A stretch of 64,000 nt of DNA from Wickerhamiella versatilis (taxonomy: Eukaryota), in contig JAQOWU010000003.1 of assembly GCA_030867685.1 (NCBI GenBank), forward strand, positions 372,001-436,000. Reading direction: 5' to 3'. Each line of letters starts with the position of its first letter. The stretch's first letter is position 1. The translations under genes and the position numbers were made by a program. The notes below the pieces were generated by a model. It was not told where the DNA came from. It saw only the letters and a program-made list of their open reading frames with translations, and ran no database searches. Shown here piece by piece: positions 10,243 to 61,825 of this stretch.

Positions 10243-10264
10243 ACTGTATTTGATGCAAATTTAT

Positions 10265-13080: not shown

Positions 13081-13179
13081 TTGATAATGATAACAGGGTT
13101 TGTAACATATAAAGGAGCTAGCCCCACTAGCAATTTCCAATTAGTGGTATTCAGACCCTGACACTAACTACTTTACAGC

Positions 13180-14823: not shown

Positions 14824-15039
14824 AATAGTAATTGTCCGTCCATAATTTTGATGAATTGATGTTAGAAGCAGATAATTATATATATGTATATTATATTCAA
14901 AATATCTTGTAAGCTCGTCAAGCTCGTCTTCCCTTTTTCACAGATATTGTGGAATCGAGTAATCATGAACCATCTGTTTTAAATGCATTAAGATACAATA
15001 TAACCCAATAACCTATCATTTGTTCTACAGATTTTTAAG

Positions 15040-16338
15040 TCAAAATACAGTTCCATCGAGAATAAGCTTCAGAGGAGGACCACGTGACTCCGGACGAAGT
15101 TTTGCAGCAACTTCCCTTCCAAGCTTCCAAGTTCCTGCCTCTAGAATTTGAGGAAGAGTCAAATTGTTTTTCATAGCCTTATGTCGCAGAATTTCAGCTA
15201 CCTTGTCAATGGAAATGACCGTCAAAGCTCTCCATTCAACTATAGCAGGATGAGATGCACCCATGGCAGGTATATCAGAGAGAGAATTCACATTATTAGG
15301 ATCGAGACCGAATGACGCCGCCAGTTGTGACAGCTTTGGAGTAAAAACACCGCGGTCGATGAATAGTCCGCCGTTCCTATATTCTGGAAGACCTGTCATT
15401 GCATCCATATTACTCACGACACAATCGAGAGATTTCTGAAGAACCTCAATTAAGGAATAAGTGAGCCACTGGGACAACTTATGAAATGGAACAAGATTCA
15501 CCGAGTTAGTACTACCCAATGCCGGACATTCCCATACATCCCCGAGAATAGTTTTTCCATATACCACCCTACCCTCCGTAGGCCAAATCTTTTGAAAACC
15601 GTATATAACGGCTCTCCAAAGATCATGCGTATCAATACCAAAGCCTATTGGCTTACTTGTCCCAGAAAGATGCTGTAAATAATCTATCATATATCCAGGT
15701 CTCTGTTTCTCCCTATTTCGCCCGAAATAGTCCTCCTTCTCATATTGAGAAATCACAGTACCCAACTTGGTCAAAAGACTCGCACGTGAATCGGCACCCT
15801 GCAGGGGATTCGAGGTTGAAACTTGAAGTCCTTCTTCCAGTTTAGCCGCGGTCACCTTGACTAAACCACTTGAATCACATTGATATGGATTCTGTGGATC
15901 AGAGCTAAAATCACCGTTCTTAAACATGAAAAAACTGGCAAGTGCCAGTCCTTCACTGCGCGCCACTGCCTCATGGGTGTCTGGTGTGATAAACTTCCAA
16001 CGATCTCCTGCTCCTGCATCTAGAAGTACTGATACAACCATTAAATCAAAGAGCCGTCGAGCAATATCAAGCTTGCTCACATGTGATAACTCCCACTCTT
16101 CAATGAGCTTTTCCAAACGCCCTCCCAAGAAATGTCTCCATCGGCCATGAGGGGGAATCTTCTCAAAGTTACCATAGTCTCTTTGAACTAAAGATATGAC
16201 ATCACTAGCAATACTGTCCAAGTTTTCCGGATGAAGTTTCCAATACTGGAGCTCATCATCAAGGGCAAGAGAATACACTTTACCACATTTTTCCCTGATG
16301 GCAGGTAGGCTCATCAAATAATCCACTTTGTCGCTCAT
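15040..16338 (-). CDS. URC4: Uracil catabolism protein Urc4/urg3 (DUF1688)
   Basis: IPPHGRWRHF, VSVLLDAGAG..W, RSEGLALAS, FHKLSQWLTYSL, TGLPEYRNGGLF, VEWRALTV, LEAGTWK.GR and C-terminal DGTVF. ATG at 16338. Confidence 0.95.
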   Translation of the reverse strand: MSDKVDYLMSLPAIREKCGKVYSLALDDELQYWKLHPENLDSIASDVISLVQRDYGNFEKIPPHGRWRHFLGGRLEKLIEEWELSHVSKLDIARRLFDLMVVSVLLDAGAGDRWKFITPDTHEAVARSEGLALASFFMFKNGDFSSDPQNPYQCDSSGLVKVTAAKLEEGLQVSTSNPLQGADSRASLLTKLGTVISQYEKEDYFGRNREKQRPGYMIDYLQHLSGTSKPIGFGIDTHDLWRAVIYGFQKIWPTEGRVVYGKTILGDVWECPALGSTNSVNLVPFHKLSQWLTYSLIEVLQKSLDCVVSNMDAMTGLPEYRNGGLFIDRGVFTPKLSQLAASFGLDPNNVNSLSDIPAMGASHPAIVEWRALTVISIDKVAEILRHKAMKNNLTLPQILEAGTWKLGREVAAKLRPESRGPPLKLILDGTVF

Positions 16339-20504: not shown

Positions 20505-23500
20505 CTAAATAGGTTCATCACGAGGTTCAACGAGGATTTCATTTACGGAGACATGTTCTGGTTGGCGAAGAGCATAAACAATTGCATCAGCTACATTTTC
20601 TGGGTCTAGTATTTTTGCCCCCGAGCTTCCACCATATTGTTTGATTGCTTCTTCATCTGATGACATATTCAAAAGGTCTGTTGCACAGTTTCCTGGTTGA
20701 ATTGCAGTCACACGAAGTCCTTTGCCTGCAGTCTCAAGACGCAAAGACTGAAGAGTAGCTTCCACAAAAAACTTACTTGCAGAATAAACTCCCAGTCCCG
20801 GAAAAACCTTACGGCCGGCATCTGATGAAATTGCGACAAAATGGCCTTTTCCACGAGAAAGCATATCTGGTACGGACGATGCAATACTATGGAGAAGACC
20901 TTTGCAATTAACATCAACAGTCCGATCCCATTCTTCAGTAACATTGTTTTGCATAAGCGTGAAATACATTACGCCAGCACATGATACCACTATGTCGACA
21001 GGACCCAGCTGAGAAGTAGTGTTCACAAAAAGCCGATGAACTTGTAGAGGATCAGTAACATCAGTCTCTTGGATAAGGATACGGCCATTATGTATAGCAA
21101 TACGTCTCCGGACATCCTGAAGGGCGGAGGAACGTCTAGCTGCGATTGCAACATGGCAACCTTCTCTCGCAAGAGCAACAGCAACGGCTGCTCCAATACC
21201 ACTTGAGGCACCTGTGACAACAGCAACCTTCCCACTGAGAGGACCCTTTGAGTGGGAATACGCTGAGCCACCCAGAGCGGAGCACGCACTGGGGCCATGA
21301 GGAAGCCAGCCTCGGGCATACCAGTGCTTGGTATATGTTTCCAACAATACTTTACCAATTACAGGCCGACTAAGTTGCTGCAGGAAACAACTAGTCTTTG
21401 TATTTTTGAGAACTATCACTCCAGTTAGAAAGTCTACTGACGGCATGCCGGAGCGTAATACATCTAAGGTAAAAGCACCTTCACCTCCCCTTATGCCTGC
21501 ACGCGTTTCATTCCATTGGTGTACCCAAGCATCCCAAGAAAGATGTTCTGTTGGGTAACCCAGAGAAGATAATTCTCTGAAGACCGATCGCATGCTTGGC
21601 GGATCTGAATTGCCTAGATGAAAAACTGGCTGTTGAACAGTTAATGGATCATTTGCAAGATGAACAACGGCACTCGCAACAAAATCGACTGGAGTAATCT
21701 CAGCATACCAACCATCAACATCAGGAGCTTTCCCCATGTGGAGAGATTCAACCACAATTGCATTGAAAAGATCCCATGCATTAGATGCACCGCTTGAGCT
21801 GTGGCCGCAAATTGTACCAAGTCGGAATATGCGAAGTGGAATACCACGTCTGTAAGCTTCAGTGGCTAGCTGTTCAGCAACCCATTTGGTCTGACCATAC
21901 CCATCAGCAAGCTTTTCTGGGACCTCATCTACAGATAGCGAGTAGTCTTCAGGCCAGCCATCTTGAGAAGGGGGAAGAACACCATTCGTTGAGATATGAT
22001 GCACTGTAGACCCAGAAAGAGATGCTAATCGCAAAATTTCAGTTGTCCCACCTACATTAGCATCACGTAGCGCTGCGTAAGGGTACACCAAATTCACTGT
22101 CGCAGCTGCATGCACAATAACCTGGACACGTTCAACAAGCTCCGCGAAATCCTTTACAGATAAGCCAAGGTTTTTTTGAGAGATATTTCCAGGAAGAACC
22201 TCTATCCTATCCATAATAGAATCACGCCACAATCCCAAATCTAAGAGATGACGACGGATTCTAGCTACGCCACTCGGAATATCATTGTGCTCCGGAGTTT
22301 TGAACCTTACAAGACACACAATGTGTGCATTAGTTTTTTCCAGCAGCTCGTTCAGCAGAAATGCACCCAAAAATCCTGTAACTCCGGTTAGCAGGACAGT
22401 ATCTGCCTTATTGATGGGCTTGAAGCTGGTGTCTTCTCTAGGTGATATACTTGGATCCAGAGTACAGTCCTTCTTCAAAACAGAGACAAGGTCAGACTCC
22501 AATAATCCTGCATCACCATCCCTAAGTGCCCTAAGAGTACGCAAATGGCCAGGAATAGTTGCATCGTCTACAAGACGAGCTATCGGAACCTTGAACCCAA
22601 ATTCAGCATTCAACCGTGATGCAAGGTGAGCAAGTAGCAAAGAATGACCTCCAAGATCGAAGAAATTTACTTCTGTTGAGACTACGTGCCGTGGTACTTT
22701 CAGTGTGGACGCCCATATATCAGTGATAGTATCAACATTTATCGGGTCCCTGTCATTCTTCAGTGCCGGCTTTTTGTGGACCTCTGGTTCAACATCATCT
22801 GGCCTCTTGGGAAGTGGAAGACTCTTAAGATCAACTTTTCCAGAGACTGTATTAGTAGGAAGCTCAGGGAGCTCCATCCACAAAGTTGGAATCATGTACA
22901 GCGCAAGGTGAGGTGCAAGTACACGACGAGCCAGAGGACTGTAAGCAGAGTAAGAATCTATTTCAATCTTGGGGCGTTCTGCTGATGGTTTATTCTCATT
23001 GTCTGTCACAATGTAAGCGATAAGTTGCTTGTCTAAGCCGTCACCAACAGATGTCACAGCACAGTGACGTACCGCAAGATGCTCAATTATTGCACTCTCA
23101 ACTTTACCTGGAACAACAGAATATCCTCGAAGCTTTATCATGGCGCCGATACGACCGGTAATCTCTAACAATCCATTCTCAAGAATTCGAGCGACATCGC
23201 CTGTTCGATACATACGCGCACCTGGTGTGGCATCAAACGGATCAGAAACAAATGAAAGCGCTGTCGTTTCTGGTCTATTCAGGTAACCACGAGCGAGCAT
23301 TGGGCCACCAATATATAGTTCGCCAACAGTTCCGATTGGTGCTTTATGTCCTCTATTATCCAAAATGTATGTGTATCTTGGCTGAAGCGGGGGGCCTACG
23401 GGACAGTATTTCTCAGAAGAATCGAGCATTGATACCATTTCCCGAATATCACCACAGGCTATTTCATGAGTTTCACATGCACTGTAACAATTTAGCAAAC

Positions 23501-24383
23501 GTACTTTCGGCAATGCTTGCAATGCACGTCGCGCAAAATCCATAGTCACTACCTCCCCATTTAGCCATACACGCTTGAGATCAGGCAGCTCATTTGCAAG
23601 TCCGGTTGGATTCCGTGCCAGAATGGTGGCAAGTAGAGTAGGTGTGAACAGAGTTTCTGTCACCTTATGCTCACGAAGAAATTCGAGAAGAGCATCAGGG
23701 TCATATGATATCTCGTCAGGTACTGTAATGACAGTACCGCCGCGCAGCAACGGACGGATAATCTCCCAGATGAAAAACACATTGCATGCAACACGATCAC
23801 CAATATCAACATCACTAACAGTAAAGCGTAGATCATATGACAGCACAGGAGCTCTGTGGGGATTCGCAATGCCTTTAGGATGACCTGTTGTCCCTGAGGA
23901 GTAGGATACAAAGGACAGTCTGTCCAAATCGGTCTCAGCAGGAATGGGAGGAAGCTGAGGAACCCCCTGAACAGAAGTAGACCGCGATTCAGGTTCATCT
24001 AGCACCAACACAGGTATATCCTCTCTGATTTTTGAGGAATGCTCCTTAACTGTAACCACAGCCGTAGGGTTACTATCATCCAAAACATCAGAAAGCAATC
24101 GCGGAGGATAAGCAAGTTCAAGCTGCATAAATGCCCCACCAGCGTGTAAAATAGCTAGACATGCAATTACATAGTCTGCGCCCCGTCCAAGGTATACACC
24201 AACCTGACTGTCACGTCCCACACCTAGCCGTCTGAGCCTATGCCCCAACGACATGACTTTCAAATAGAGTTCAAAATACGTGTATCTGGTAGTATCATCC
24301 TCTAAGGCGAGCAAGTCTGGTGTTTCATTTACCTGCTGCACAAATAGTGCATTAAGATCCTTGCTCGTATCTATAATGGCCAT
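20505..24383 (-). CDS. ATRR: NRPS-like A-T-R1-R2 enzyme, glycine betaine reductase type
   Basis: Adenylation domain (YSSGTTGHPKG, YRTGD), carrier domain (FFDLGGHSL), thioester reductase (LLTGVTGFLG, GYGQTKWVAE) and C-terminal SDR (VTGASSGIG, YSASK, ...EPRDEPI). Confidence 0.9.
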   Translation of the reverse strand: MAIIDTSKDLNALFVQQVNETPDLLALEDDTTRYTYFELYLKVMSLGHRLRRLGVGRDSQVGVYLGRGADYVIACLAILHAGGAFMQLELAYPPRLLSDVLDDSNPTAVVTVKEHSSKIREDIPVLVLDEPESRSTSVQGVPQLPPIPAETDLDRLSFVSYSSGTTGHPKGIANPHRAPVLSYDLRFTVSDVDIGDRVACNVFFIWEIIRPLLRGGTVITVPDEISYDPDALLEFLREHKVTETLFTPTLLATILARNPTGLANELPDLKRVWLNGEVVTMDFARRALQALPKVRLLNCYSACETHEIACGDIREMVSMLDSSEKYCPVGPPLQPRYTYILDNRGHKAPIGTVGELYIGGPMLARGYLNRPETTALSFVSDPFDATPGARMYRTGDVARILENGLLEITGRIGAMIKLRGYSVVPGKVESAIIEHLAVRHCAVTSVGDGLDKQLIAYIVTDNENKPSAERPKIEIDSYSAYSPLARRVLAPHLALYMIPTLWMELPELPTNTVSGKVDLKSLPLPKRPDDVEPEVHKKPALKNDRDPINVDTITDIWASTLKVPRHVVSTEVNFFDLGGHSLLLAHLASRLNAEFGFKVPIARLVDDATIPGHLRTLRALRDGDAGLLESDLVSVLKKDCTLDPSISPREDTSFKPINKADTVLLTGVTGFLGAFLLNELLEKTNAHIVCLVRFKTPEHNDIPSGVARIRRHLLDLGLWRDSIMDRIEVLPGNISQKNLGLSVKDFAELVERVQVIVHAAATVNLVYPYAALRDANVGGTTEILRLASLSGSTVHHISTNGVLPPSQDGWPEDYSLSVDEVPEKLADGYGQTKWVAEQLATEAYRRGIPLRIFRLGTICGHSSSGASNAWDLFNAIVVESLHMGKAPDVDGWYAEITPVDFVASAVVHLANDPLTVQQPVFHLGNSDPPSMRSVFRELSSLGYPTEHLSWDAWVHQWNETRAGIRGGEGAFTLDVLRSGMPSVDFLTGVIVLKNTKTSCFLQQLSRPVIGKVLLETYTKHWYARGWLPHGPSACSALGGSAYSHSKGPLSGKVAVVTGASSGIGAAVAVALAREGCHVAIAARRSSALQDVRRRIAIHNGRILIQETDVTDPLQVHRLFVNTTSQLGPVDIVVSCAGVMYFTLMQNNVTEEWDRTVDVNCKGLLHSIASSVPDMLSRGKGHFVAISSDAGRKVFPGLGVYSASKFFVEATLQSLRLETAGKGLRVTAIQPGNCATDLLNMSSDEEAIKQYGGSSGAKILDPENVADAIVYALRQPEHVSVNEILVEPRDEPI

Positions 24384-30848: not shown

Positions 30849-32003
30849 ATGGACATATTAAATATTCGTCACCTCTTATGCTACCTAGCACTAGTTCGTG
30901 CCGCGGTAGATCCTGTGTTGGACGCTAAGTGGGGAACCGATTGGCCTTTTAGCGGATTGACGACTTTTGCACATCTTCCCACAGTAAAATGTCTCGTGGA
31001 TCCAGAACAAGCATTTGATGCGGCCATCATTGGCGTTCCATTTGATACTGCTGTTTCATATCGTACTGGTGCTCGCTTTGGGCCAAGGGCCATAAGAGCA
31101 GCCAGCTCACGACAGACGAAACTTAGCGGCTTCAATATCAGGGCAGGTATAAATCCATACCAAAGCTGGGCAACAATTACAGACTGTATGGACATTCCAG
31201 TCACGCCAATGAACAATGAACTCGCCCTTGAGCAAATGACAGCTGGGTTTTCTGAGTTACTGGAGCATCCCACGGCGCATCCAAAACTAGGTGGATCTAC
31301 TCCAAAACTGGTGGCATTAGGGGGAGACCATTCCATAGTTCTTCCTCACTTACGTGCATTGAGAAAAAAATACGGACAGCCGATAAGTGTCATTCACTTT
31401 GACGCACATCTCGATACATATAACCCCACCAAGTACGCCAGTGGTCCCCAAGACTCAGTCGGGAGCGGCGTCGCCGAATTCACACATGGAACTATGTTTT
31501 GGATGGCAGCCCAGGAGGGCCTTCTGAGCGATACATGTATTCATGCTGGCCTTCGATCCCGGATTGGTGGAATCGATTATAGTGACTACCTTGACGATTC
31601 AAAGCAGGGGTTCGCTCGAATAAGTTGCGATGATATAGATGAAATTGGTGTCAAGGGAATAGTCCAGGTGATCAAGAACCGAATCCCCAAAGGGGCTCCC
31701 GTCTATATTAGTGTCGATATTGATGTTATTGACCCGAGTGCTGCTCCAGGAACCGGGACTCCGGAAGTTGGAGGATGGAGCACCAGGGAGCTGATTGGTA
31801 TGCTCAGGAGGCTTACTGGCTTGAATATAGTGGGGGCAGATGTTGTCGAAGTTGCACCATCATATGACCAGGCTGAAATAACAGCTTGGGCGGGAGCACA
31901 GGTGGCCTATGAGCTTCTCACCTCTATTGTGATGGAGAAGAGTCCCGGTGGAGTGAAATCAGATCCGTCGAAAAATATACATGTAAATCATAATGAGCTC
32001 TAG
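30849..32003 (+). CDS. Ureohydrolase (agmatinase/guanidinobutyrase-like), signal peptide and C-terminal HNEL
   Basis: [48 protein letters not shown] and DVVEV.P Mn-binding motifs. Confidence 0.93.
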
Positions 32004-32626: not shown

Positions 32627-34147
32627 ATGCGGCACACCTTTGCTCGAGCAAGGCTGGCTTCAGTCCTCGCGCTCTGTCTCGTCATTTTCTTGAGTTCTAG
32701 ACTCCTCAAGTCTGATGGAATCGATAGTTCGCAGCTCAAGCCTGCCCTGAGTCGCGTTCTGACTACATCGTCTCAGGAGACCGCGAACGACCCATTCCGG
32801 TATGAAATCTCAGCGACAGGGCCTCGTGATCCCTATGCGTACAAGGTTATGTACGGTATCAAAACAGGAGCAAATTACCTGTGGGAGCAATTGCCAGTGC
32901 ACATGTCGACCACATATCTACGATGGCCCCACCACATGGCATACGCCGAAGTTTCTACAAGTGTAGGCACTGAACCAGTGGTTAATGTATTTGAAAGGGT
33001 CCCAGAACATGTTTTAAATGACTCAAGCCTAGCAGGCTATCTCGCATTGCAAACCAGCATTGAGGAATATTATAATTGGAATTACGATGATGTCGCGGAC
33101 TACGATGGCTGGGAAATTGCAAGATTGAAAGAGTTGCCAATGTTAGCCCACATGTGGGAAACGGCGCCAAAGGATATCGAGTGGTTTGTATTTGCCGATG
33201 GCGATACCTATTTCATGCAGGAGGGGCTGATTGACCACTTAAAGCAGTACGACCCCAATGAGCCGCGTATTCTTGGTAGCCCAGCATTCCTTCCCATAAA
33301 ATCAGGGACTAACCAATACAACATAGTGTTCCCTCATGGCGGGAGTGGTACCGCCGTCAGTCGCGGTGCAGTCGCAAAGCTTTTTGCTGAGGGCACACAA
33401 CCCGTGATTGATAAATATACCGAACTGGCGCTAAGCCACTGTTGTGGGGACGCAATATTTGCAGCAGCAATGTATGAAGTGACTAACACGACATTAACGG
33501 TTCCTTGGGGCCTGCGCCCCCATTTTCGCGATCCTTACCAAGGTGCCAATTTCGTTGATCTTGGTATAGTGGATGACGGGTGGTGCCAGCCGGTGTATTC
33601 CTGGCACCACCTGAAACCCAAGGACATACAGACGCTATGGGAGTTTGAAGGCGAATTGAACGGTCCCATCACCTACAGCCAGGTTTATCGCCACTTTTGG
33701 CTCCCCTACATGGTACCAGAGCGGAAAGGGTGGGATGCGTTCTATTCGATAACAGGTACCCCTACAGAGCGGGTGGCTAATAACAGGTGGCTATTTGATT
33801 TCTCTAAGGAATCTATTAAAAACTACAGCCATCTTAACAGCACGATTTTCAAGGAAACTCTTGTTCCTTATAGAACGAAAGAGGAATGTGCAAATACGTG
33901 CATGAATATGAGGGATTGTCTCGTCTGGCGCTGGATGCCGGGACATTGCACCACAACCAACAAGTTACTGGTGCGAGGACAAGCCATCACACCGGAGCAT
34001 TGGGACTGGAAGCAGGACATGTGGTCGGGCTGGATTGTGGACCGTATTCAGGACCGACGTAAAGGTGCGGAATGTGACCCCCTTGGTCCGAATGACCTGG
34101 GCGATGAGGGCTGGGCTTGGCGACACGATACCCACTCTATCAAGTGA
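32627..34147 (+). CDS. Fringe-like GT31 glycosyltransferase
   Basis: N-terminal TM, KTGA, WFVFADGDTY, PHGGSG, CCGD, W..PV.SWHH and a C-terminal Cys-rich PAN/apple-like segment. Confidence 0.88.
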   Translation: MRHTFARARLASVLALCLVIFLSSRLLKSDGIDSSQLKPALSRVLTTSSQETANDPFRYEISATGPRDPYAYKVMYGIKTGANYLWEQLPVHMSTTYLRWPHHMAYAEVSTSVGTEPVVNVFERVPEHVLNDSSLAGYLALQTSIEEYYNWNYDDVADYDGWEIARLKELPMLAHMWETAPKDIEWFVFADGDTYFMQEGLIDHLKQYDPNEPRILGSPAFLPIKSGTNQYNIVFPHGGSGTAVSRGAVAKLFAEGTQPVIDKYTELALSHCCGDAIFAAAMYEVTNTTLTVPWGLRPHFRDPYQGANFVDLGIVDDGWCQPVYSWHHLKPKDIQTLWEFEGELNGPITYSQVYRHFWLPYMVPERKGWDAFYSITGTPTERVANNRWLFDFSKESIKNYSHLNSTIFKETLVPYRTKEECANTCMNMRDCLVWRWMPGHCTTTNKLLVRGQAITPEHWDWKQDMWSGWIVDRIQDRRKGAECDPLGPNDLGDEGWAWRHDTHSIK

Positions 34148-38967: not shown

Positions 38968-40089
38968 ATGTTTCTTTTCAAGACTTTGTTGGTGCTTGGT
39001 ATATCGCTTGCCACGGCAGCTAGAGCAAGCGATGAAGAACTTCAAAAGCGATGGGGACAAGACTGGCCTTTTAGCGGGATCAGTACATTTGCACATCTTC
39101 CAAGCCAGAAGTGTCTTACCAACAGCAGTGCCACTTTTGATGTGGGAATTATCGGCGTGCCGTTCGATACAGCGGTCTCTTATCGTCCGGGCGCACGGTT
39201 TGGTCCTCGTGCTATACGGGCTGCCTCGATGAGACAAAGCGACTTACGAGGATTCAATGCTAGGGCTGGATTTAATCCTTACCAAAATTGGGCAACGCTA
39301 TTAGACTGTGCCGATATACCTGTCACGCCTGTAGATAACAAACTAGCACTCATTCAAATGACGGAAGGGTTTAAGGAGTTGCTGAGCCGGCCAGTGGCAG
39401 CTCCAGAAAAAGGGAGCACACCAAGACTTGTTTCTCTTGGTGGTGACCATTCTGTCGTGCTTCCACATTTGCGTGCTTTATATGAGATTTACGGACCTAT
39501 TTCTGTTATTCACTTTGATGCTCACCTGGACACCTGGGTTCCTACATCTTATCCTAGTAGCTGGTCCGACGTAGCAGATCCGGGTTCTGGGGAGTTCACT
39601 CATGGCTCCATGTTTTGGATGGCACACACTGAGGGGCTTCTTAGTGATACTTGCATTCACGCCGGGCTTCGCACCCGCCTGTCTGGAACGGATTTCAGAG
39701 ACTACGAGGATGATAGCAAGCAGGGATTTGCTCGCATATCGTGTGATGATATTGATACAATGGGTGTAGATGGGATCGCTTCTAAAGTTTTAGATCGTAT
39801 TCCAGAAGGTGCTCCAGTATATATAAGTGTGGATATTGATGTCATCGATCCATCTGCGGCGCCCGGAACGGGCACGCCAGAAGCTGGTGGGTGGACTTCC
39901 CGAGAACTTATAGGACTACTTCGCCGTGTGGAGTCCTTGAATGTTGTCGGTGCTGATGTAGTAGAGGTGAGCCCTGGTTACGACCACGCAGAAATAACGG
40001 CTCTCGCTGGTGCTCAAGTAGCATACGAACTGGTCACCAATATGGTACTGCAACGCACACAAAAGCCACTGGCGCATGATGAACTATAA
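38968..40089 (+). CDS. Ureohydrolase (agmatinase/guanidinobutyrase-like), signal peptide and C-terminal HDEL
   Basis: Same Mn-binding motifs as 30849. Hydrophobic N-terminus; ends in AHDEL. Confidence 0.94.
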   Translation: MFLFKTLLVLGISLATAARASDEELQKRWGQDWPFSGISTFAHLPSQKCLTNSSATFDVGIIGVPFDTAVSYRPGARFGPRAIRAASMRQSDLRGFNARAGFNPYQNWATLLDCADIPVTPVDNKLALIQMTEGFKELLSRPVAAPEKGSTPRLVSLGGDHSVVLPHLRALYEIYGPISVIHFDAHLDTWVPTSYPSSWSDVADPGSGEFTHGSMFWMAHTEGLLSDTCIHAGLRTRLSGTDFRDYEDDSKQGFARISCDDIDTMGVDGIASKVLDRIPEGAPVYISVDIDVIDPSAAPGTGTPEAGGWTSRELIGLLRRVESLNVVGADVVEVSPGYDHAEITALAGAQVAYELVTNMVLQRTQKPLAHDEL

Positions 40090-51501: not shown

Positions 51502-53226
51502 ATGGTATTGGGGCTCTATAAACAAAGACCTTTCGTCTCGGTAGTTCTTGTATTGCTCATATCTATATGGGGAGTAATATACCTGCAAGATCTACGATTT
51601 TACAGATCTCACGAGCCTAGCATTAAAGCACCCTCTCCTCCAATCCACTTAGAGCAATACGCATGGCAGGATGAATTTAAAGATGATATTCCGCCCAAAC
51701 CTGACCATAGCATGTACCCTGGGTTCGATAATGAGGCCACCGAGGTATCATTTCCAACTGGAGAACTTCGATATAAATTTGGCACATCTGAAGTATGGAG
51801 GAGTCCTTCGCGTTATCCTTTTAGGGATAATCGTGTAGTAGAGCCAGTGGTAGGCAGCCTAGTACGTCCACTTTCGAATGATATTCTCCATCCTCTATGT
51901 AATGACATGTTTCTCATGTTCAAGACCGGTGCAGACATAATGTGGCGTAGAACCCCAGTTCACCTACACACCACACTCACAAGATTTCCTCATTTCGCAT
52001 TGTATAGCGATCGTCCCGGAATGATAGCGGGTTATGAGGTTATTGATATTTTGGCCGGTATGCCTCGAGACGTATTGAACAGCCATGAGCTAATTAAATA
52101 CCGAATTATGCACCAAATGCAAGATGAAGCGTGGATGTGGAGTGCTGAAGATATCTCAATGGCAGAGGGATGGAATATGGACCGATTCAAAAATGTTCCC
52201 ATGATGCTGCATGCCTATAAAAACGCTCCACCGAACACCAAGTGGTTCATAATGATCGATGATGACACTTACATATTATCATCTAATATCGCTAAGTATT
52301 TGAGCACTTTGGATAGCTCGCACCCTTATTACATTGGCAGTGCCGCCCAGGCGGGGTCGTACACTTTCGCCCATGGTGGATCCGGGGTGATCTTTTCGCG
52401 AGGTGCGCTTGACAAGCTTTTTGGACCTGACGCTGCGAAGCCACAGGACGAACTAATGGATGAATATGCTAGAAAGGCGCTCTATGTGAGCCCCTTTGGA
52501 GATCTTATGGCTAGCCTCATTCTTTCCGAGAAAGCAAATGTCTTCGTTAACACTAAGGACAAGAATGCAGACAAGGCCAAGCTCGATATGTTCAAACATG
52601 GTCGCGATATGTTCCAGGGTGAAACCGTATCTAGCACTTGGCTGAATGTGTATAACTGGTGCTACCCGTTGGGAACCTTCCACCACGAACGACCACAGGA
52701 GTTGGAACTGTTATGGGAATGGGAACAGACGCGAGCAAGAAATTCCGACTATCTTACATACTATGATCTGTATCGGGATTTTATTTTGCCGTATATTGCA
52801 GAAGAAGTTCCTGATTGGTTGATCCCGGGTGGAATCGTTTTGAACGCTGAAAAAACGGCGGAGACGCCTGAAATGTATAAAGGGAAACAGATTTGGCCTA
52901 ATGCAACTCAAGAACACTGTAGGCTTGCTTGTATGAGTCGTGAGGACTGCCTATCGTGGTCATTCAAATATAGCGAATGCCATGTTCACGAGAAGGGACT
53001 AATTAAAGGCGCAGCAGCTCCTATTCATGATGCTTCTGCAGATAAAGATACGTGGATCTCCGGTTTTCTTATAGATCGCATCAGAAAAATTCGCTCGAAA
53101 CAAAGGTGCGATCCTTTGAAAGAGCTGCCTCTAGGCTCATACAACGACTCGCCCGATACATCCGAGGGTTGGTATTACCGAAAACTAGAGGAGGAGGAAG
53201 ATAGGCCTCAAAGGACTCCCTACTAA
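51502..53226 (+). CDS. Fringe-like GT31 glycosyltransferase (tandem copy 1)
   Basis: TM anchor, FKTGA, MDRFKN.PM, WFIMIDDDTY, FAHGGSG and Cys-rich C-terminus. Confidence 0.9.
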   Translation: MVLGLYKQRPFVSVVLVLLISIWGVIYLQDLRFYRSHEPSIKAPSPPIHLEQYAWQDEFKDDIPPKPDHSMYPGFDNEATEVSFPTGELRYKFGTSEVWRSPSRYPFRDNRVVEPVVGSLVRPLSNDILHPLCNDMFLMFKTGADIMWRRTPVHLHTTLTRFPHFALYSDRPGMIAGYEVIDILAGMPRDVLNSHELIKYRIMHQMQDEAWMWSAEDISMAEGWNMDRFKNVPMMLHAYKNAPPNTKWFIMIDDDTYILSSNIAKYLSTLDSSHPYYIGSAAQAGSYTFAHGGSGVIFSRGALDKLFGPDAAKPQDELMDEYARKALYVSPFGDLMASLILSEKANVFVNTKDKNADKAKLDMFKHGRDMFQGETVSSTWLNVYNWCYPLGTFHHERPQELELLWEWEQTRARNSDYLTYYDLYRDFILPYIAEEVPDWLIPGGIVLNAEKTAETPEMYKGKQIWPNATQEHCRLACMSREDCLSWSFKYSECHVHEKGLIKGAAAPIHDASADKDTWISGFLIDRIRKIRSKQRCDPLKELPLGSYNDSPDTSEGWYYRKLEEEEDRPQRTPY

Positions 53227-53569: not shown

Positions 53570-55156
53570 ATGATTCTACGACTTCACAATCGCCGAATAC
53601 TCCTCTTTCTTTTCACAGCATGTATAATCGTATTGTATACTGTATTCGTTCGTGGCGATTTTTCCCGCAAAATACAGATGTCGGGACTTCTCTCTAGTTT
53701 AGGTGGCCAAAAGATACTAGCATTACCACCACACTCTTACCTCACAACAAAACTGAATTCAGGTGAGGTTTGGCGGGACCCTTTTCGGTATCGCCAAGAT
53801 ACCATCCGTGCTCCACAGCCGATCCCCGGATCGGTTATTCGCCCCCTTTCTGACGATCCACTAGATCCACGAGCTGATGATATATTTCTCATGGCGAAAA
53901 CTGGTTCTGATGTCATGTGGAGTAGGATGCCGGTACATCTGCACACCACGTTCTCGAGGTTCCCTAATTTTGCGATATACAGCGACCGCCCAGGGACTAT
54001 AGCAGGATATGAGGTTATTGACATTCTCGCGGACATGCCAGAAGATGTATTGAATAGTCAAGATTTATTCAAGTACAGAATTATGCGCGAAATGCAGGAT
54101 GACGCGTGGACGTGGAGCGCCGAGGATATCACGCTAGAAGAGGGGTGGAATATGGACCGGTTTAAAAATATTCCCATGATGTTGCATGCATACAAAAACG
54201 CTCCGGCGAAGACTCAATGGTTTATAATGATCGATGATGATACCTACATGTTCTCCGGTAACATTGCCAAGTTTTTGAGGACGTTAGACAGTAGTCGCCC
54301 TTACTATATTGGAAGCATCGCTATGGTTCGTGATGTTTTTTTTGCACATGGTGGATCTGGTGTAATTTTTTCTAGAGCAGCACTGGATAAAGTTTTTGGG
54401 CCTGAAGCGAGGATGTCACATGAAGAACTTTTGAATAAGTACGCCAATAAAGCGCTTGATCTTAATCCTCCATTTGGGGATCTAATGGCTGCACATTTAT
54501 TGGAGTTTGATGGTGGTGTATATTTAAACACAAAAGACCCAGACTCTGTAATTGCTAAGTTGGACTTATTTGATCGCAGTCAGGATATGTTTCAGGGGGA
54601 AAGAATAGCTAGCACTTGGGTGAATGAAGACCTCTGGTGTTGCCCATTGGGGACATTCCACAAATTACGACCGAACGAAATAGAGACCTTATGGGAGTGG
54701 GAGCAATCAAGAGCCTCTCCCGGTTACCGACTACTTTATTATGACTTTTATCACGATTTCATATTGCCTTACATTTCCGAGGAGGTTGAAAACTGGGTTA
54801 TTCCTGGAGGCAAGATTCTTGATGACGCGTATATTAAAGAATCCCAAGGCGCTTATGATGATTGGGACAGTATGCCCAGCGAAGATAAAGAGAGCTGCAA
54901 AAAAGCCTGCATTAATATGGATAAGTGCCTATCCTGGTCCTTTAAACCTGGCGAGTGTCGTGTACAAGAAAATGGGGTATCCAGAGGGATTCACGCGAGT
55001 CTCGACGATCCGACATGGGTGTCTGGTTTCCTCATTAACAAGATCCGCAAAATTAGAATCGCTCAGACCTGTGATCCACTGACAGTGAGTGAACTGGGTA
55101 TTGTAAATGATTCTCCGAAAACGTCAGAAGGATGGTACCACCGTAAGCGTGCTTGA
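53570..55156 (+). CDS. Fringe-like GT31 glycosyltransferase (tandem copy 2)
   Basis: Close paralogue of 51502, sharing PVHLHTT..RFP.FA.YSDRPG.IAGYEVIDILA, WFIMIDDDTY and TSEGWY. ATG at 53570; the track starts at TTG 53516. Confidence 0.9.
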   Translation: MILRLHNRRILLFLFTACIIVLYTVFVRGDFSRKIQMSGLLSSLGGQKILALPPHSYLTTKLNSGEVWRDPFRYRQDTIRAPQPIPGSVIRPLSDDPLDPRADDIFLMAKTGSDVMWSRMPVHLHTTFSRFPNFAIYSDRPGTIAGYEVIDILADMPEDVLNSQDLFKYRIMREMQDDAWTWSAEDITLEEGWNMDRFKNIPMMLHAYKNAPAKTQWFIMIDDDTYMFSGNIAKFLRTLDSSRPYYIGSIAMVRDVFFAHGGSGVIFSRAALDKVFGPEARMSHEELLNKYANKALDLNPPFGDLMAAHLLEFDGGVYLNTKDPDSVIAKLDLFDRSQDMFQGERIASTWVNEDLWCCPLGTFHKLRPNEIETLWEWEQSRASPGYRLLYYDFYHDFILPYISEEVENWVIPGGKILDDAYIKESQGAYDDWDSMPSEDKESCKKACINMDKCLSWSFKPGECRVQENGVSRGIHASLDDPTWVSGFLINKIRKIRIAQTCDPLTVSELGIVNDSPKTSEGWYHRKRA

Positions 55157-55337: not shown

Positions 55338-56411
55338 TTACAGTTGGTTCATTAAAAATCCACTATTAATGAAGTCCTCAGGTTCAGCAACGAAACTAGT
55401 TATGCTTGTATAGTATGCATATCCATCGACGCGGACAATCACCGCATTTTTGCCCCGAAAATCTACTTCTTCCACTAATTCGGCACTGAAAGCACCTTTC
55501 CTATAGTGATTGGAAACCAATGAGTTGTAATTCCAGCGCATTCCAAGAGGACGACACCCTTTAGCGTGCGAGACGGCCATACGGGCGCATACGCATGAGC
55601 CTGTGGGTGATCTATCAATTTCATTATCGGCGAAAAAGCATAACCCCGTTTCGGAGTCATTCTCTTTGTCAGGGCTCGTAATCATGATACCATATAAAAA
55701 AGATAGTCTATCATCTTCAGGATGTTTCACTGCTTTCACAATTTCCGGTTGATTTTCGAGTTTCTTTTTAAGCTCTTTTGCCTTCTGGCCTACCTTATCG
55801 ATGTCAAAATCATCAGATAGGCTAGAAAGTCCAAAGTATTCACAGCTGATCAGCGCATAAAAGGCTCCACCATAGCCAACATCAACCGTCATTCCATCAA
55901 TGTTAATATTTAACGCAGAAGCAATGCAAGGAACGGAAAGAAATGATACCGGTCGCGAGGGATCTGATTTTCCCTGATGATTTACAGGTGCGCTGACTCT
56001 AACGATGCCACAAGGTGCATGAAGGTTTATATTCACGCTTGAAGCTCCAATTTGTTGTTTTGCAATACCAGCATCGACTAGATATCTGCCGAGAGCAATA
56101 GTGGCATGGCCACACATGGTAGAAAAGCCATCATTGTGTATAAATAGCACACCTATGTCAGCTTTTCCGGCCTCGGTATACTCAGTCTTAGGACACAATA
56201 TCGCACCATACATATCGAAATGGCCCCGAGGCTCAAATATTATTCGCTTCCGCAAGTAGTCATATTGTGTCGAAGCCTGTTCGCGCTGTTCTAGCAAGGT
56301 TCCAGACAGCTGGGGAAACCCCCCATATATGATTCTCGTTGGTTCCCCTGTTGTGTGCATTTCGACACAACGAATCGCATCTCGCTCCAAAATACTGAGT
56401 GACTCTATCAT
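55338..56411 (-). CDS. Proline racemase-family enzyme, trans-3-hydroxy-L-proline dehydratase type
   Basis: MHTTGEPTRI, EPRGH.DMYG, MCGHA (Cys) and DRSPTGS (Thr). The Cys/Thr pair marks dehydratases. ATG at 56411. Confidence 0.88.
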   Translation of the reverse strand: MIESLSILERDAIRCVEMHTTGEPTRIIYGGFPQLSGTLLEQREQASTQYDYLRKRIIFEPRGHFDMYGAILCPKTEYTEAGKADIGVLFIHNDGFSTMCGHATIALGRYLVDAGIAKQQIGASSVNINLHAPCGIVRVSAPVNHQGKSDPSRPVSFLSVPCIASALNINIDGMTVDVGYGGAFYALISCEYFGLSSLSDDFDIDKVGQKAKELKKKLENQPEIVKAVKHPEDDRLSFLYGIMITSPDKENDSETGLCFFADNEIDRSPTGSCVCARMAVSHAKGCRPLGMRWNYNSLVSNHYRKGAFSAELVEEVDFRGKNAVIVRVDGYAYYTSITSFVAEPEDFINSGFLMNQL

Positions 56412-56863: not shown

Positions 56864-58288
56864 TCAATGTATAGGGAAAGCTTCAGATAGCCTGGTCATT
56901 CTGGCGGGATCTGTCACACTCCAAAATTTATGCGCTGCCTCCCCAACAAGATTAGAAGATTCCTCTAAGTCTTGCTTGTCGGATGGGGCAAAGGATATGC
57001 GGAAGTAGCGGGCCATATGATCTGCGTCATCAGGTACAGGGGCAAACATGTACCCAGGGCTCACTAAGGTTGGACGCGACTGCTCGGTTTGGAACATCCA
57101 AAATGCTCTTGATAGGTTAAGGGACCCGATTCTTTCATACAGAGGATGACGCTCAAAGTGTACAAGTACCCATACGAACATACCTGCCTGGGGCGGTGAA
57201 TAGTCCAGGATACGCTCTGCGCCCATATACATCCACTTCTCAAGCCCACGACATAATAAGTCCCTCCGTTCGTGATATTCTCTCTCTAGGCTTTCCAGCC
57301 AGTTCATCCACCCTGCATGACCCCAGTTTTTAAGCGTTTTAAGCACTATCAGTTGGGAAAATCCGGAGGGATGCGCATTAACTTCTTCGGTCTGATAGTA
57401 CAGTCTCCTTATAAGGGATGGCTGAGCAGTCACCCAGCCGAGTCGTGAGCCTGGAGCAAAGTTCTTGGAAAAACTATCAAGACGAATAACCCGTCCATCA
57501 ATATCTATCTGTAAATAACATTTCTCTTTTTCGGGGCTGTACTGTAGAAACCAATACGGTTCGTCTTCAGCAATGATAACATCGAAATCACTGAGTATTT
57601 TATAAAGTTCCTTTCGACGACTCAGAGGTGTGGTTGCACCAGTCGGGTTCTGGCCAATACTTACTGTATAGAGGAGATGGGGTCTTTTACCTTTCGTGGA
57701 GTCCCAATTCGCCAGGGTCTCGTACAGGGCATCGGGTAGCATACCATACTGGTCCATTGCAACCGAGACCACGTTGAGGCCACGAACACGAGCAGCCTCC
57801 GCTGCGCATGAATATGTGAACTCTTCAACAAGAATTCCCTGGCGGTTATTTACATCACCCTCATCATCCCACTCATTACTCAGGACTTGGAGGACCTTGG
57901 ACCATCCGTCAGTAGTACCGGAGGTAATGAGAGTCTCAAATCCTGGTTCATATAGGGGTGTAGCAATGTAGTCATAGGTAAATTTGCGAATCCACTCCGC
58001 CAGTTCCTTCAATCCCGATGCTTTGCCGTATTGAAGTCCGTTCTCCAAATCACGATGTGATGCTGAGACAATATGCTCTGGAGCCGATGGGTTTTCAAGG
58101 CGTTCCGGGTCGGCAGTCTCCGCCTGCACCCAGTCAATAGGGAAAAGTGATGGGTGAGGAAGCCCACCACTGAGGTCACTTATACCAGGAAGTTCTTGAT
58201 ATTTATAGAATAGCTTGTACACGTTGGCTTTCCGACGACGTGCTGGACCACTCAGGTAATGCTCTAATGATACTGGTTGAGGACCCAT
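56864..58288 (-). CDS. PLP-dependent class I aminotransferase (Aro8/2-aminoadipate transaminase-like)
   Basis: LSGGLP, LQYG...G, LYTV..GQNPTG, EDEPY, DSFSK..APG.RLGW (PLP Lys) and AGMF.W. ATG at 58288. Confidence 0.9.
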   Translation of the reverse strand: MGPQPVSLEHYLSGPARRRKANVYKLFYKYQELPGISDLSGGLPHPSLFPIDWVQAETADPERLENPSAPEHIVSASHRDLENGLQYGKASGLKELAEWIRKFTYDYIATPLYEPGFETLITSGTTDGWSKVLQVLSNEWDDEGDVNNRQGILVEEFTYSCAAEAARVRGLNVVSVAMDQYGMLPDALYETLANWDSTKGKRPHLLYTVSIGQNPTGATTPLSRRKELYKILSDFDVIIAEDEPYWFLQYSPEKEKCYLQIDIDGRVIRLDSFSKNFAPGSRLGWVTAQPSLIRRLYYQTEEVNAHPSGFSQLIVLKTLKNWGHAGWMNWLESLEREYHERRDLLCRGLEKWMYMGAERILDYSPPQAGMFVWVLVHFERHPLYERIGSLNLSRAFWMFQTEQSRPTLVSPGYMFAPVPDDADHMARYFRISFAPSDKQDLEESSNLVGEAAHKFWSVTDPARMTRLSEAFPIH

Positions 58289-58706
58289 TCTGTCAATTGC
58301 TAGTGGGGGGACTTTCACAAGACAGGGTAGGTTACTCCGCAGGTGATGACTGTACTCTTATCATGCTGGGGTTTCATCATTTAGCCGCCTGGCGGCTGTT
58401 GAACGCGTCCTCCGGAGCCATTAGGTTAGAAAGGGACATTATAGGATTGATAATGCTGCTTCAGATTTCTTTTGTTTGATTATGGCGCCTTTCTGCGATT
58501 ATTTATGTCCACCGATTACGACTTACCTTTAGAAGAAACTGGGACACAGTCTGTCTACCAACCAGTTCACTGTTATAGTATAAAATTTTTGGTAAATCAC
58601 TAGTACTACACGTAACGAATGGTAGGCGTCTTGCTTTAAGAGTAATATGTACCAACACCATCTAGCTAGAATATTAGCTCCATTTACCATAAAAGAGTAA
58701 GCACAA

Positions 58707-58786
58707 TTTGCATTTCTCACGCAAGTACAAGCTTGATCGAGTTCAAACGGTATCTTCTCAGCTCACATAGGAGCGCCCGCAGCAAA
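58707..58786 (-). ncRNA. TPP riboswitch aptamer, copy B (3'-most)
   Basis: Minus strand reads UUUGC-U-GCGGGC-GCUC-CUAUGU-GAGC-UGAGA-AGAUACCGU-UUGAA-CUC-GAU-CAAG-CUUGUA-CUUG-CGU-GAG-AAAU-GCAAA. Stems: P1 UUUGC/GCAAA, P2 GCGG/CCGU, P3 GCUC/GAGC, P4 CUC/GAG, P5 CAAG/CUUG. The UGAGA J3/2 and GCG motifs are present. Confidence 0.88.
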
Positions 58787-58882
58787 ATCATGCTTAGAAA
58801 ATGGCACACTGGACTCCTCTTCACACATGCTTAGAGATCAGAGGCAAAAGTCCAAGGAAAAATGAAGGAAATAAATAACCTA

Positions 58883-58968
58883 TAGCGTCGATCCTCACGC
58901 AAGTACAAGCTTGATCGAGTTCAAACGGTATATTCTCAGCCCAGCCAAGGGGCACCCGCACAACGCCA
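58883..58968 (-). ncRNA. TPP riboswitch aptamer, copy A
   Basis: Minus strand reads UGGCGUUG-U-GCGGGU-GCCC-CUUGGCU-GGGC-UGAGA-AUAUACCGU-UUGAA-CUC-GAU-CAAG-CUUGUA-CUUG-CGU-GAG-GAU-CGACGCUA. It has an 8-bp P1, P3 GCCC/GGGC and the TPP core motifs; only the L5 loop is atypical. Confidence 0.9.
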
Positions 58969-58977
58969 AAAAAAGAA

Positions 58978-59025
58978 CTGTATATGTTAGTCGTAACCGA
59001 TTCGTAATTTCATTTTGATACTTAC
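58978..59025 (-). other. 48-nt spliceosomal intron in the 3' UTR of the NCS1 permease
   Basis: CAG|GTAAGTAT donor at 59025, GACTAAC branch point at 58992-58986 and TACAG acceptor ending at 58978. It starts 46 nt after the TGA stop. Confidence 0.75.
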
Positions 59026-59071
59026 CTGGTCAGAAGGATAGGCCGTAATTGCATTCTGATGAATTAGGGTG

Positions 59072-60580
59072 TCATGTTACCACACCCCTAAAGTAAATCT
59101 CGATTGGACGCGTAACTAAATATGCAAACGCGGTAAACCCGAAAGAGAGGAAAGTGCCAAGTTCGCCACCCTCAACTCCAATTGTCTGGGCTAGTCGTCC
59201 AACATAGTAAGTCTGGTCCATTCCGATAACCGCCCCAGCTATTCCGCAGCAAAACGAAAACGTGGCGGCCCACATGATTGGAAAATGTCGAGGGTTGTCC
59301 CATTGGACCCACTGATAGTCTGGCTTCCCAATACGCATTACCAGTGTCTCCAGTATAAGAATAGTACCATACATCACACTCCAATAGCCAATCATGGGAA
59401 TAAAGTTATTCACAGTATCTGCCCACTTGCTACGGCCCACAGATGAGAGCACGAAAAATATGATACAGCCAAGAAATGTGTAAATAAAGCGCGGAAGCTT
59501 TTTCAGAGGTCTTCCTAATGTCTGACAACCAAGACCGAACGAGTACATCGTGAAAGTTAAATTGAAGATGATGGAAATGAAAACTAGGACAAGTAAAAAC
59601 TTACCACCACCTTTCCATCGCTTCATACTTTCTGCCAATAAGCCGGCGGCATTACCACCATCGTTATAAAATGCGTCATAGAGATTCTGGGATCCAAAGG
59701 TCGCACCCGCACTGAGTCCTACCCCAATTGCACCTACAAAAACGGTAGGAACCCACATTGCAAATAAGGTGGAGAAATAAACCTTCCATGGTTTACAATC
59801 TTCGGGGAAATAGATGTAGTAGTCCCCGCAGCCAATCCACGTGGAAGTGATTCCTACGCTGGACTGGAACATCCCTATCCAAGAAACAACTCCACCAGAT
59901 CCAGAACTTTTATTCGGAGCTATGGTGTCCCAGTCTCTTGCTGTGCAAATATACACCAACAGGAATGCAATCAGTACTGGCCCTACAAATATATTGTCGA
60001 ATAGAGATACAGTGGGAATTCCAAAAAGCGTAACAAGGGCAGTAGCTAGGAAAATGATTAGAATGCCATAGAAAGTGTCCATTGATTTGTCTGAAACTGC
60101 AGAAAGCAACTGGCCTCCAAATACTGCAGATACGATTGCAAATCCCACACCAGTGAGAAGATTCAGCAATGCAATAAATTTAGCAGGCCACCATCCAAAC
60201 TGGTATCGAACTCCAACCATCGATCTAAGCCCACTTCTTACACCCATTACTGCTCCAAAAGCACCAAAAAGGGATCCAACAAAGGTTCCGAAAAAAGACG
60301 CGCTTAACGAGCCCTTAAATCCAAGACCAAAAAGTTGGCTGCCGGTAAAGAAGCCCGTCATGGACGTAACACTTCCACAGGCAGCCAGCCATATAGCTAG
60401 AAGCCTCGAACAATGGCGCCAGTCAGCTTGAAGTCGTTCCTCAGGTATTCGCCTTTCAATGCCCCAGCCTTCGCCTTGCCTATATATCCAATCGACAACA
60501 AGCCAAAGATAGCGAAAAGGGGCATAAGGCCGGATCTCGGTATAGACACTCCCATACTTCTTTGATGCTTCTTGTGTCAT
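59072..60580 (-). CDS. NCS1 purine-cytosine permease family transporter (TPN1/FCY2-like)
   Basis: GIER, F.G..LFGL, G..SGLR.MV..RYQFGWW, V.GGQLL.AVS, DYY, YS.GL..Q, PR, NF..MIGYW and IGMDQTYYVG, with about 12 TM segments. Confidence 0.92.
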   Translation of the reverse strand: MTQEASKKYGSVYTEIRPYAPFRYLWLVVDWIYRQGEGWGIERRIPEERLQADWRHCSRLLAIWLAACGSVTSMTGFFTGSQLFGLGFKGSLSASFFGTFVGSLFGAFGAVMGVRSGLRSMVGVRYQFGWWPAKFIALLNLLTGVGFAIVSAVFGGQLLSAVSDKSMDTFYGILIIFLATALVTLFGIPTVSLFDNIFVGPVLIAFLLVYICTARDWDTIAPNKSSGSGGVVSWIGMFQSSVGITSTWIGCGDYYIYFPEDCKPWKVYFSTLFAMWVPTVFVGAIGVGLSAGATFGSQNLYDAFYNDGGNAAGLLAESMKRWKGGGKFLLVLVFISIIFNLTFTMYSFGLGCQTLGRPLKKLPRFIYTFLGCIIFFVLSSVGRSKWADTVNNFIPMIGYWSVMYGTILILETLVMRIGKPDYQWVQWDNPRHFPIMWAATFSFCCGIAGAVIGMDQTYYVGRLAQTIGVEGGELGTFLSFGFTAFAYLVTRPIEIYFRGVVT

Positions 60581-61072
60581 GATGCTTACAAGATTTCACG
60601 ACGAAGACACAGAACCCTCTTTCGTAGTCAGAGCGATGTAGTCATCGTTGCGGAACGGTAAGCATGAAACACTGAGTCATTCATAAGATTAGATTTCATG
60701 GGCAGTGTATTATTCGGGTTCTGGACATCTTCCGGATTGCTTGAAATGGCCTCTCTTTCGCTAGGAGCATCCCTCGGTAGCATAATTAAATTTGTTACTT
60801 GGTGTGCATTATTTACGCCCGAGTGAACTTATGAATTATGCAACTTATTTAGTTATCCCATTTTAATCAGCGCATATGAGTACTGCTAAGGTACTCTGAT
60901 CAGATGAGCACCTGTATAACTCACTGAGAGTCGCAGTTAGCAATCTTTTCACTACCAATTATATGGAGATAAATTTCATAAACAAATACGTTCTATTTAC
61001 TTTCTATAGACCACCTAAAAAATGCCTCTTGATTTCAACCTGTTAACTGCATGACGGAATATTGTTGGGCAT

Positions 61073-61825
61073 TCACGCGCAGAATCCACCGTCAACGTTG
61101 ATGGTAGTACCAGTAATGTGACCTGCCTCGGGGCTTGCCAGGAAGGCCACCGTAGCGGCAATATCTTCGGCTTTTCCATATTTACCATTGGCTGCAAATG
61201 ATTTGAGAGTCTCAGCAAATGGAACAGAGTCTGGATTCATGTCTGTATCGATGGGGCCAGGCTGAACCAGGTTGACTGTTATGTCCTTCTTTCCCAAGTC
61301 ACGAGCCCAGCCTCGAGTATATCCAGCAACGGCCGCCTTTGAGGCTGCGTAGTCGGCTAAGCCGGGAAGTGGGGCACGGTCCGCGAAGATGGAACCAATA
61401 TTAATGATTCGGCCACCAGGCTTTAACAGGGGGACTGCTGCACGCACTGCGATGGCAACACCTTTCACGTTGACTTCCAGCTGACGATCCAAAGCTTCAA
61501 TATCAGCATTAGGATCATCAACAGGAGCGCCTGCCAGTACCCCAGCATTGTTCACCAATATGTCAATACTACCAAAAGTCTCGTACGCCTTAGCTATAAG
61601 CGAGCGGATCTCTGAAGGAACGGCCTGATCAGCCTTAACCGGAAAGATCTCGGACCCACTTTTGAGCTGAACCTGTGTTGCCAAATTCTCAGCGTCCTGC
61701 GTTGACCTGCCATAGCTGAAGACAACGTTGGCCCCTGCATCAGCCAAGCTTCTAACAATTGCTGCACCTATACCACGAGAGCCACCAGTTACGACTGCTA
61801 CCTTTCCTTTAAGCGTTCCTGCCAT
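61073..61825 (-). CDS. Short-chain dehydrogenase/reductase, bacterial-like (BdcA/YjgI-type)
   Basis: VTGGSRGIGAAI, LVNNAG, GGRIINIGS, YAASK, ARDLG...ITVN.VQPGPIDTDMNP and DGGF. Confidence 0.92.
   Translation of the reverse strand: MAGTLKGKVAVVTGGSRGIGAAIVRSLADAGANVVFSYGRSTQDAENLATQVQLKSGSEIFPVKADQAVPSEIRSLIAKAYETFGSIDILVNNAGVLAGAPVDDPNADIEALDRQLEVNVKGVAIAVRAAVPLLKPGGRIINIGSIFADRAPLPGLADYAASKAAVAGYTRGWARDLGKKDITVNLVQPGPIDTDMNPDSVPFAETLKSFAANGKYGKAEDIAATVAFLASPEAGHITGTTINVDGGFCA

Follow-up and report, generated by a model that had tools for sequence, protein, structure and literature searches.

Within the 64-kb window, i.e. the whole stretch of DNA that was analysed, the mRNA of a transporter gene of the NCS1/purine-cytosine-permease family contains a spliced intron and two TPP aptamers, and it occurs in long unspliced as well as long spliced forms. 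By analogy with the plant THIC riboswitch, the locus may be a TPP-sensing OFF switch in which recognition of the splice signals competes with cleavage at a proximal 3' end. We give this reading an even chance. All features of the locus described below are located on the minus strand.

The permease gene and its surroundings

The window consists of compact yeast DNA with long unbroken ORFs and a GC content of about 0.39-0.47. The permease CDS (59072-60580, 502 aa) was identified by its ORF, by a match to PF02133 (E 2.8e-11) and by a tree; its TGA stop codon is at 59074-59072. Among named proteins, the permease is closest to Tpn1 of Wickerhamiella sorbophila and of Starmerella bacillaris. In the tree, which comprised 31 rows, it falls within the clade that holds these two (W. 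sorbophila TPN1, S. bacillaris Tpn1) with 100/100 support, as sister to the group with S. bacillaris Tpn1. By sequence, the permease groups with named yeast Tpn1 proteins, to which it may be paralogous, and due to its placement in the tree the host yeast is assigned to the W/S clade. Since this clade has lost de novo thiamine synthesis, as stated in excerpts of PMC12461148, the permease is probably an importer of thiamine or a precursor. Its substrate may be one of these instead of vitamin B6.

A metagenome scan of the DNA around each of 14 distant Tpn1 loci (29-34% identity) revealed a TPP match near none of them. Thirteen of these loci entered the tree and none belonged to the W/S clade, so that they are silent on conservation. 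A profile search for permease homologues, in which 7999 candidates were scored, returned the same 15 proteins again. TGACTCA (60673-60679, minus strand), which we take to be a Gcn4-type site, precedes the permease ATG by about 95 nt, and there is a short upstream ORF near 60645.

Elsewhere in the window, genes for a UPRTase, a Zn-cluster regulator, a GTP-cyclohydrolase-like protein and a DUF1688 protein adjoin each other at 9547-16338, an arrangement similar to the URC cluster for uracil catabolism in Lachancea kluyveri. An adenylation-thiolation-reductase protein of 1292 aa, with an additional SDR domain at its C-terminus, is encoded at 20505-24383 (minus strand); we assume that its layout is that of the fungal glycine-betaine reductase ATRR. 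A GH127 gene with bacterial Ig domains (2328-4652), a gene of the proline-racemase family (55338-56411) and an SDR gene with PRK12742 as its best NCBIfam model (61073-61825) are candidates for genes of bacterial origin, which are common in the W/S clade. Three Fringe-like glycosyltransferase genes (32627-34147, 51502-53226 and 53570-55156) and two arginase-family genes (30849-32003 and 38968-40089) lie together within 25 kb.

Splice signals and splicing of the 3' UTR intron

The permease stop codon is followed by a first 3' UTR part of 46 nt (59026-59071) and a GT-AG intron of 48 nt (58978-59025), which is removed from a minority of the transcripts. The 5' splice site (59018-59028) reads CAG followed by GTAAGTAT, with the first G of the intron at 59025, and is presumably complementary to the U1 5' end over all 11 nt. 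A GACTAAC branch point is present at 58986-58992, its branch A probably being 58987. The 3' splice site CAG (58978-58980) is also the candidate proximal cleavage/poly(A) site, as judged from read starts and a step in read depth. It is followed by a U-rich tract (58968-58977; TTC, then T7 at 58974-58968), a possible downstream 3'-end element, and lies 9 nt before P1 of the first aptamer. The original prediction, which had described this intron, its distance from the stop codon, its three signals, the gap to P1 and the U7 tract, held in every coordinate. Reading the intron as part of the CDS was rejected since two homologues, P0002 and P0003, terminate where the permease does.

A strict short-intron pattern occurred once in the window versus a mean of 1.1 in 200 shuffles; the pattern alone is within chance expectation. 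For such a pattern with its donor in a given 100-nt stretch of a given strand, the expected count is about 0.0009. The donor 11-mer was the sole match at up to one mismatch, a tolerance at which the chance mean is 1.02.

Reads over 57900-59700 were taken from four of six raw-read RNA runs (X7, X9, X10 and X12; 24-48% of each). The RNA runs derive from two studies, at most three samples and two strain genotypes, neither of which is that of the window; X7 and X9 represent one strain, X10 and X12 a second one. Joints were listed from three reads with two starts upwards. The sole joint listed was 58974>59026, with five letters in between. These letters are the two extra T-tract bases of the X7/X9 strain plus window positions 58975-58977, and therefore the exact cut is 59026>58977, the very junction that had been predicted. 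Eight junction reads with eight starts were found in X7 (five letters visible in seven) and two in X9 (letters visible in both), giving eight and two exact reads, respectively, while X10 contributed one read whose intervening letters were not listed and X12 none. Unspliced depth at 58993 was 56 (X7), 25 (X9), 22 (X10) and 28 (X12), summing up to 131. The resulting junction shares of 12.5%, 7%, 4% and 0% (pooled 11/142) are slightly too low because junction reads need anchors. At 58967, junction reads versus depth amounted to 8/56, 2/23, 1/24 and 0/17 in the same order of runs.

The RNA reads confirm that the 48-nt 3' UTR intron is real and spliced exactly, and that its splicing is a minor event. 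It has the GT donor, branch point, YAG acceptor and exact removal of a U2-type intron. A genomic deletion behind the joint was rejected because spliced and unspliced reads occur within the same RNA runs and the cut fits GT-AG. Spliced reads were present and a poly(A) site upstream of 59025 did not emerge; these were the two points on which the original prediction had staked the intron.

The splice signals are kept in three genotypes, while neighbouring bases vary. The X10/X12 strain has a C at donor position +8 (59018), and the X7/X9 strain differs at two bases directly upstream of GACTAAC; among the variants listed from the reads of the two strains, none falls within this motif. The U-rich tract is one or two bases longer in the RNA strains than the U7 of the window.

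Transcript limits and candidate 3' ends

Downstream of the permease lies an aminotransferase gene (56864-58328, minus strand; CDS 58288-56864; PF00155) with its own transcript start near 58328, 40 nt ahead of its ATG. At 58328, adapter-like loose ends were seen in X10 (7 reads) and X12 (11 reads), which presumably stem from a template-switching adapter, and depth climbs below 58326. Read depth was about 3-11 across 58630-58330 and 40-70 below 58265. In the low-depth stretch 58330-58630 there is a donor-like GTAAGT near 58526, from which no joint was listed. Because the aminotransferase starts separately, both aptamers belong to the 3' UTR of the permease. Read coverage runs through both of them unbroken and is continuous with the permease.

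Plus-strand read starts accumulate at 58980, with five in X10 (depth beside 15) and nine in X12 (depth beside 19), and this is the only read-start pile present in two runs. The pile falls on the C of the CAG acceptor. Further X10 starts are at 58640 (6) and 58649 (5), and in X7 and X10 depth drops below 58632, which makes 58640-58649 (minus strand) a candidate for the distal 3' end at which the long isoform stops. At both 58980 and 58649 the RNA reads UAC and then A; yeast cleavage sites typically have a pyrimidine followed by A. Seven read-start piles were recorded, and since two of them fall within coding regions (57950 and 59367) such piles may be library artefacts; a third one is inside aptamer B. 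Poly(A)-tailed loose ends were not listed in any of the four runs.

In X7 and X9, which come from the other study, depth fell across the intron and then levelled off. From 59075 to 58845 it ran through 70, 62, 49, 36, 25, 23 and 30 in X9 (25 at 58993; 29-30 at 58845-58837) and through 100, 107, 90, 61, 56, 56 and 43 in X7. The peak at 58876-58936, which consists of reads from another aptamer locus, was left out of the fit. A model with two ends outfitted a model with one end at all seven fragment sizes in both X7 and X9, with short-form shares of 0.2-0.6 (X7) and 0.4-0.75 (X9), although the depth points are autocorrelated and the step could come from poorly recovered structured RNA. Read starts and depth together point indirectly to two 3' ends, at 58980 and at 58640-58649, and a proximal end at 58980 is rather likely. 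The corresponding 3' UTRs would measure about 427 nt (long unspliced), 379 nt (long spliced) and 92 nt (short form).

It had been proposed that splicing drops the proximal poly(A) signal and so creates the long UTR. The signs of ends at 58980 and 58640-58649 agree with the first part of this proposal, since 58980 is inside the intron and splicing would remove it. The second part did not stand in its original form: most long transcripts retain the intron, so the long 3' UTR can arise without splicing.

The aptamers and their possible pairing with the donor

Aptamer A (58875-58969) and aptamer B (58696-58790) scored 61.0 and 56.6 bits, respectively, against Rfam RF00059 (gathering score 54.3). 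Both cover model positions 1-105, and they are the only two Rfam matches in the 64-kb window. By the covariance model, A and B are members of RF00059. Both have P1-P5 and the motifs for binding of thiamine and pyrophosphate (UGAGA / GCG), and an identical 38-nt stretch, which includes the donor-complementary segment, is common to them. Apart from paralogue-derived letters, no strain variant in the aptamers was among those listed, while the spacer and the CDS vary. The exact aptamer pattern had no match in scans of prokaryote genomes and viral contigs. In all four runs, reads of another, more abundant TPP-aptamer transcript of this yeast cross-map to 58891-58942 (52-219 loose ends each); their flank contains a branch-point-like GACTAAC shortly after P1 and is unspliced there.

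Donor positions +1 to +8 could form eight consecutive pairs, six Watson-Crick and two G-U, with 58906-58899 of aptamer A (P5 loop and 3' strand). The corresponding segment of aptamer B is 58728-58721, within the shared stretch. Outside the aptamers, none of 1000 sliding 16-mers was predicted to form a stronger duplex with the P4-P5 segment than the donor (-12.8 kcal/mol), which was almost equalled by a 16-mer at 58614 (-12.5). Depending on the window folded, the predicted pairing of the donor with P5 of A was 0.10, 0.05, 0.48 or 0.0. A hairpin internal to the intron dominated most folding windows (about 0.6), and closing aptamer A raised donor accessibility in one of four (from 0.16 to 0.32). 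As these results shift with the window limits, folding serves as a plausibility check only. The donor-complementary UACUU occurs in about 22 of 47 yeast DUR31 aptamer rows, counted by eye in supplement 2 of PMC5997356; because it is so common there, it is regarded as inherited and not as locus-specific evidence. With the +8 change of the X10/X12 strain, G-C would take the place of G-U in the pairing with the aptamer; this is a single observation. A U-rich stretch after aptamer B (58694-58706, minus strand) could form about 10 pairs with the donor, predicted at 0.8 in one folding window and below 0.1 in the others, and a U-rich stretch after aptamer A (58873-58879, minus strand) may, by eye, also pair with it. 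Both stretches resemble the pairing of the P1 3' side in NCU01977. Masking of the 5' splice site by P4-P5 is the mechanism of plant THIC and Neurospora NMT1, according to passages in PMC3597705 and PMC10226581.

A possible mechanism and its alternatives

At low TPP, the P5/P4 strand of the unliganded aptamer would pair with the donor, the intron would go unrecognized and the RNA would be cut at 58980, so that a short and productive mRNA would result. When TPP is high, the aptamers would close and free the strong donor. Splicing factors would then assemble on donor, branch point and acceptor, proximal cleavage would be skipped because the occupied acceptor overlaps the cleavage site, and the transcript, whether spliced or unspliced, would extend to about 58645. 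Since either free aptamer could mask the donor, the second aptamer would make the response sharper. As most long RNAs keep the intron, we adopt the version in which occupancy by splicing factors alone would suffice to suppress the proximal site, and completed splicing would remove it permanently. Alternatively, the spliced long form might be the one degraded fastest, which would explain its scarcity. The long form is presumably less stable or less translated. Junction-triggered decay follows a 50-55-nt rule. With the junction only 46 nt past the stop codon, a junction-based decay route is less likely, and a route based on the long UTR appears the likelier one. That this yeast built the logic of THIC independently from a DUR31-type aptamer, with the acceptor CAG doubling as poly(A) cleavage site and the ligand switching the choice of 3' end, is a tentative proposal, to which we give somewhat less than an even chance.

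It is possible, but rather unlikely, that the aptamers act directly on 3'-end choice, stability or translation, and that the intron is a bystander spliced at a low level upon read-through. Such a role would fit the predominance of unspliced long RNAs and the folding results, in which no robust link between closure of the aptamer and access to the donor appeared. Against it, the donor with its presumed full complementarity to U1, the consensus branch point and the acceptor lie within 60 nt of P1, for which the positional chance is about 0.001. Moreover, the splice signals are kept in three genotypes while their neighbours vary, and acceptor and candidate cleavage site are one and the same.

We consider it improbable that the aptamers are intact but non-regulatory here, as a relic or a ligand sink, and that intron and alternative ends are constitutive. 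Precedent exists in the 3' UTR aptamers of diatoms, and the 0/14 TPP matches at distant Tpn1 loci would agree with it. However, both aptamers score above the Rfam gathering threshold with their ligand motifs kept, they show no listed strain variant besides paralogue-derived letters while spacer and CDS vary, and the transporter class of the gene is tied to TPP switches in other fungi.

A distal acceptor at 58666, which would give a longer intron with an unchanged donor and excise both aptamers, had also been suggested; that such splicing yields the regulated product is very improbable. The proposed branch point and acceptor GCTAAT...TAG (58666-58678, minus strand) do exist in the sequence after aptamer B, and the order donor, aptamer, branch point, acceptor is the usual fungal layout, but this joint was listed in none of the four runs and coverage of the aptamers is continuous. 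In these runs, no joint from the donor or the aptamers to any other place, the downstream gene included, was listed. A product of such splicing could be unstable or condition-specific.

Least probable is that the aptamers form a long 5' leader of the aminotransferase gene like ordinary fungal 5' UTR switches, since the shared strand and the low, continuous read-through (depth about 3-11 from 58630 to 58330) are outweighed by the gene's own start at 58328 with several-fold deeper coverage behind it, by aptamer coverage continuous with the permease and by the lack of a joint to the downstream gene.

Significance

If the proposed THIC-like switch is true, a plant mechanism has evolved convergently, in compact form (about 430 nt), in a culturable yeast lineage of the food type. 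The locus would then represent a fungal riboswitch that controls polyadenylation from within the 3' UTR, and a eukaryotic tandem switch whose platform is defined. An importer role in the thiamine pathway would also be indicated for a Tpn1-type permease in a clade without thiamine synthesis. It would become directly testable how splice-site recognition and polyadenylation are coupled, what the additional aptamer contributes and by which route the long form decays, and a portable 3' UTR switch would be at hand for yeast engineering.

Comparison with known TPP systems

The fungal TPP riboswitches surveyed act from 5' UTRs or introns, and splicing or 3'-end control in the 3' UTR is described only for plants. 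This also applies to a spliced 3' UTR intron before TPP aptamers, for which we found no description in fungi. A fungal 3' UTR switch of splicing or polyadenylation did not emerge from our literature search, which was weak for '3 prime UTR' spellings. In the fungal types I-IV of PMC5882874 the aptamer resides in the 5' UTR or an intron, and passages of PMC11683625 likewise describe 5' UTR and intronic types. By contrast, the aptamers described here are exonic and located 3' of both stop codon and intron.

In aptamer sequence, the locus resembles yeast DUR31 and Neurospora NCU01977 (excerpts of PMC5997356 and PMC3597705), and its P4-P5 fits the DUR31 alignment, which includes S. bombicola and C. 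apicola. However, the DUR31 and NCU01977 aptamers described in these excerpts lie within an intron (5' or coding) and precede its branch point, whereas those of the permease are downstream of a complete intron and after the stop codon. According to the portion of PMC5997356 that was examined, S. bombicola and C. apicola have DUR31- and MCH4-linked aptamers and Tpn1-like hosts occur only in filamentous fungi. The fungal 'nucleoside transporter' switches (Tpn1/Fcy21-like, AN4526; PMC5882874 and, in part, PMC5997356) share with our locus the permease superfamily and the TPP aptamer, but the nucleoside-transporter rows in Data S1 of PMC5882874 are all 5' UTR or intronic and from filamentous ascomycetes. 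Unlike these filamentous hosts, the window permease nests with yeast Tpn1, in a tree without AN4526. In the same Data S1, two of 291 rows are labelled 3' UTR, both of them unvalidated and from Postia placenta eIF5B, and W/S species account for none of the 291. The eIF5B aptamers share the 3' UTR location, but they are single, and no mechanism with a 3' UTR intron is described for them (PMC5882874).

Tandem TPP aptamers in a eukaryote are also found in Saprolegnia NMT1, but within a 5' UTR intron of an oomycete, and no mechanism is given for them (PMC5882874). Diatom 3' UTR TPP aptamers are likewise near predicted poly(A) sites. They exhibited neither splicing nor a thiamine response in the account given in part of PMC9544697, whereas splicing of the yeast intron was observed. 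By analogy, the missing response in diatoms is the main caution for a regulatory reading of our locus.

The closest parallel is the 3' UTR TPP riboswitch of plant THIC (Wachter 2007, Bocobza 2007), as described in passages of PMC10226581 and PMC3597705. As in THIC, a 3' UTR aptamer is situated downstream of a used 5' splice site with whose donor P4-P5 could pair, a candidate processing site is inside the intron, and a short isoform probably occurs beside the long one. On the other hand, the host is a fungus, the gene encodes a transporter (NCS1 permease) and there are two aptamers. In plants and algae the acceptor is located in P2 of the aptamer, according to excerpts of PMC9544697, whereas in the yeast the 48-nt intron stops 9 nt short of P1 and both aptamers stay whole. 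Furthermore, unlike in THIC, the candidate cleavage site is the acceptor itself and the long RNAs are mostly unspliced. The long UTR measures about 0.43 kb, compared to up to 1 kb in plant THIC. In its layout, the yeast locus works like THIC, while its host gene, its kingdom and an acceptor outside the aptamer set it apart as a system that is not a member of the THIC type.
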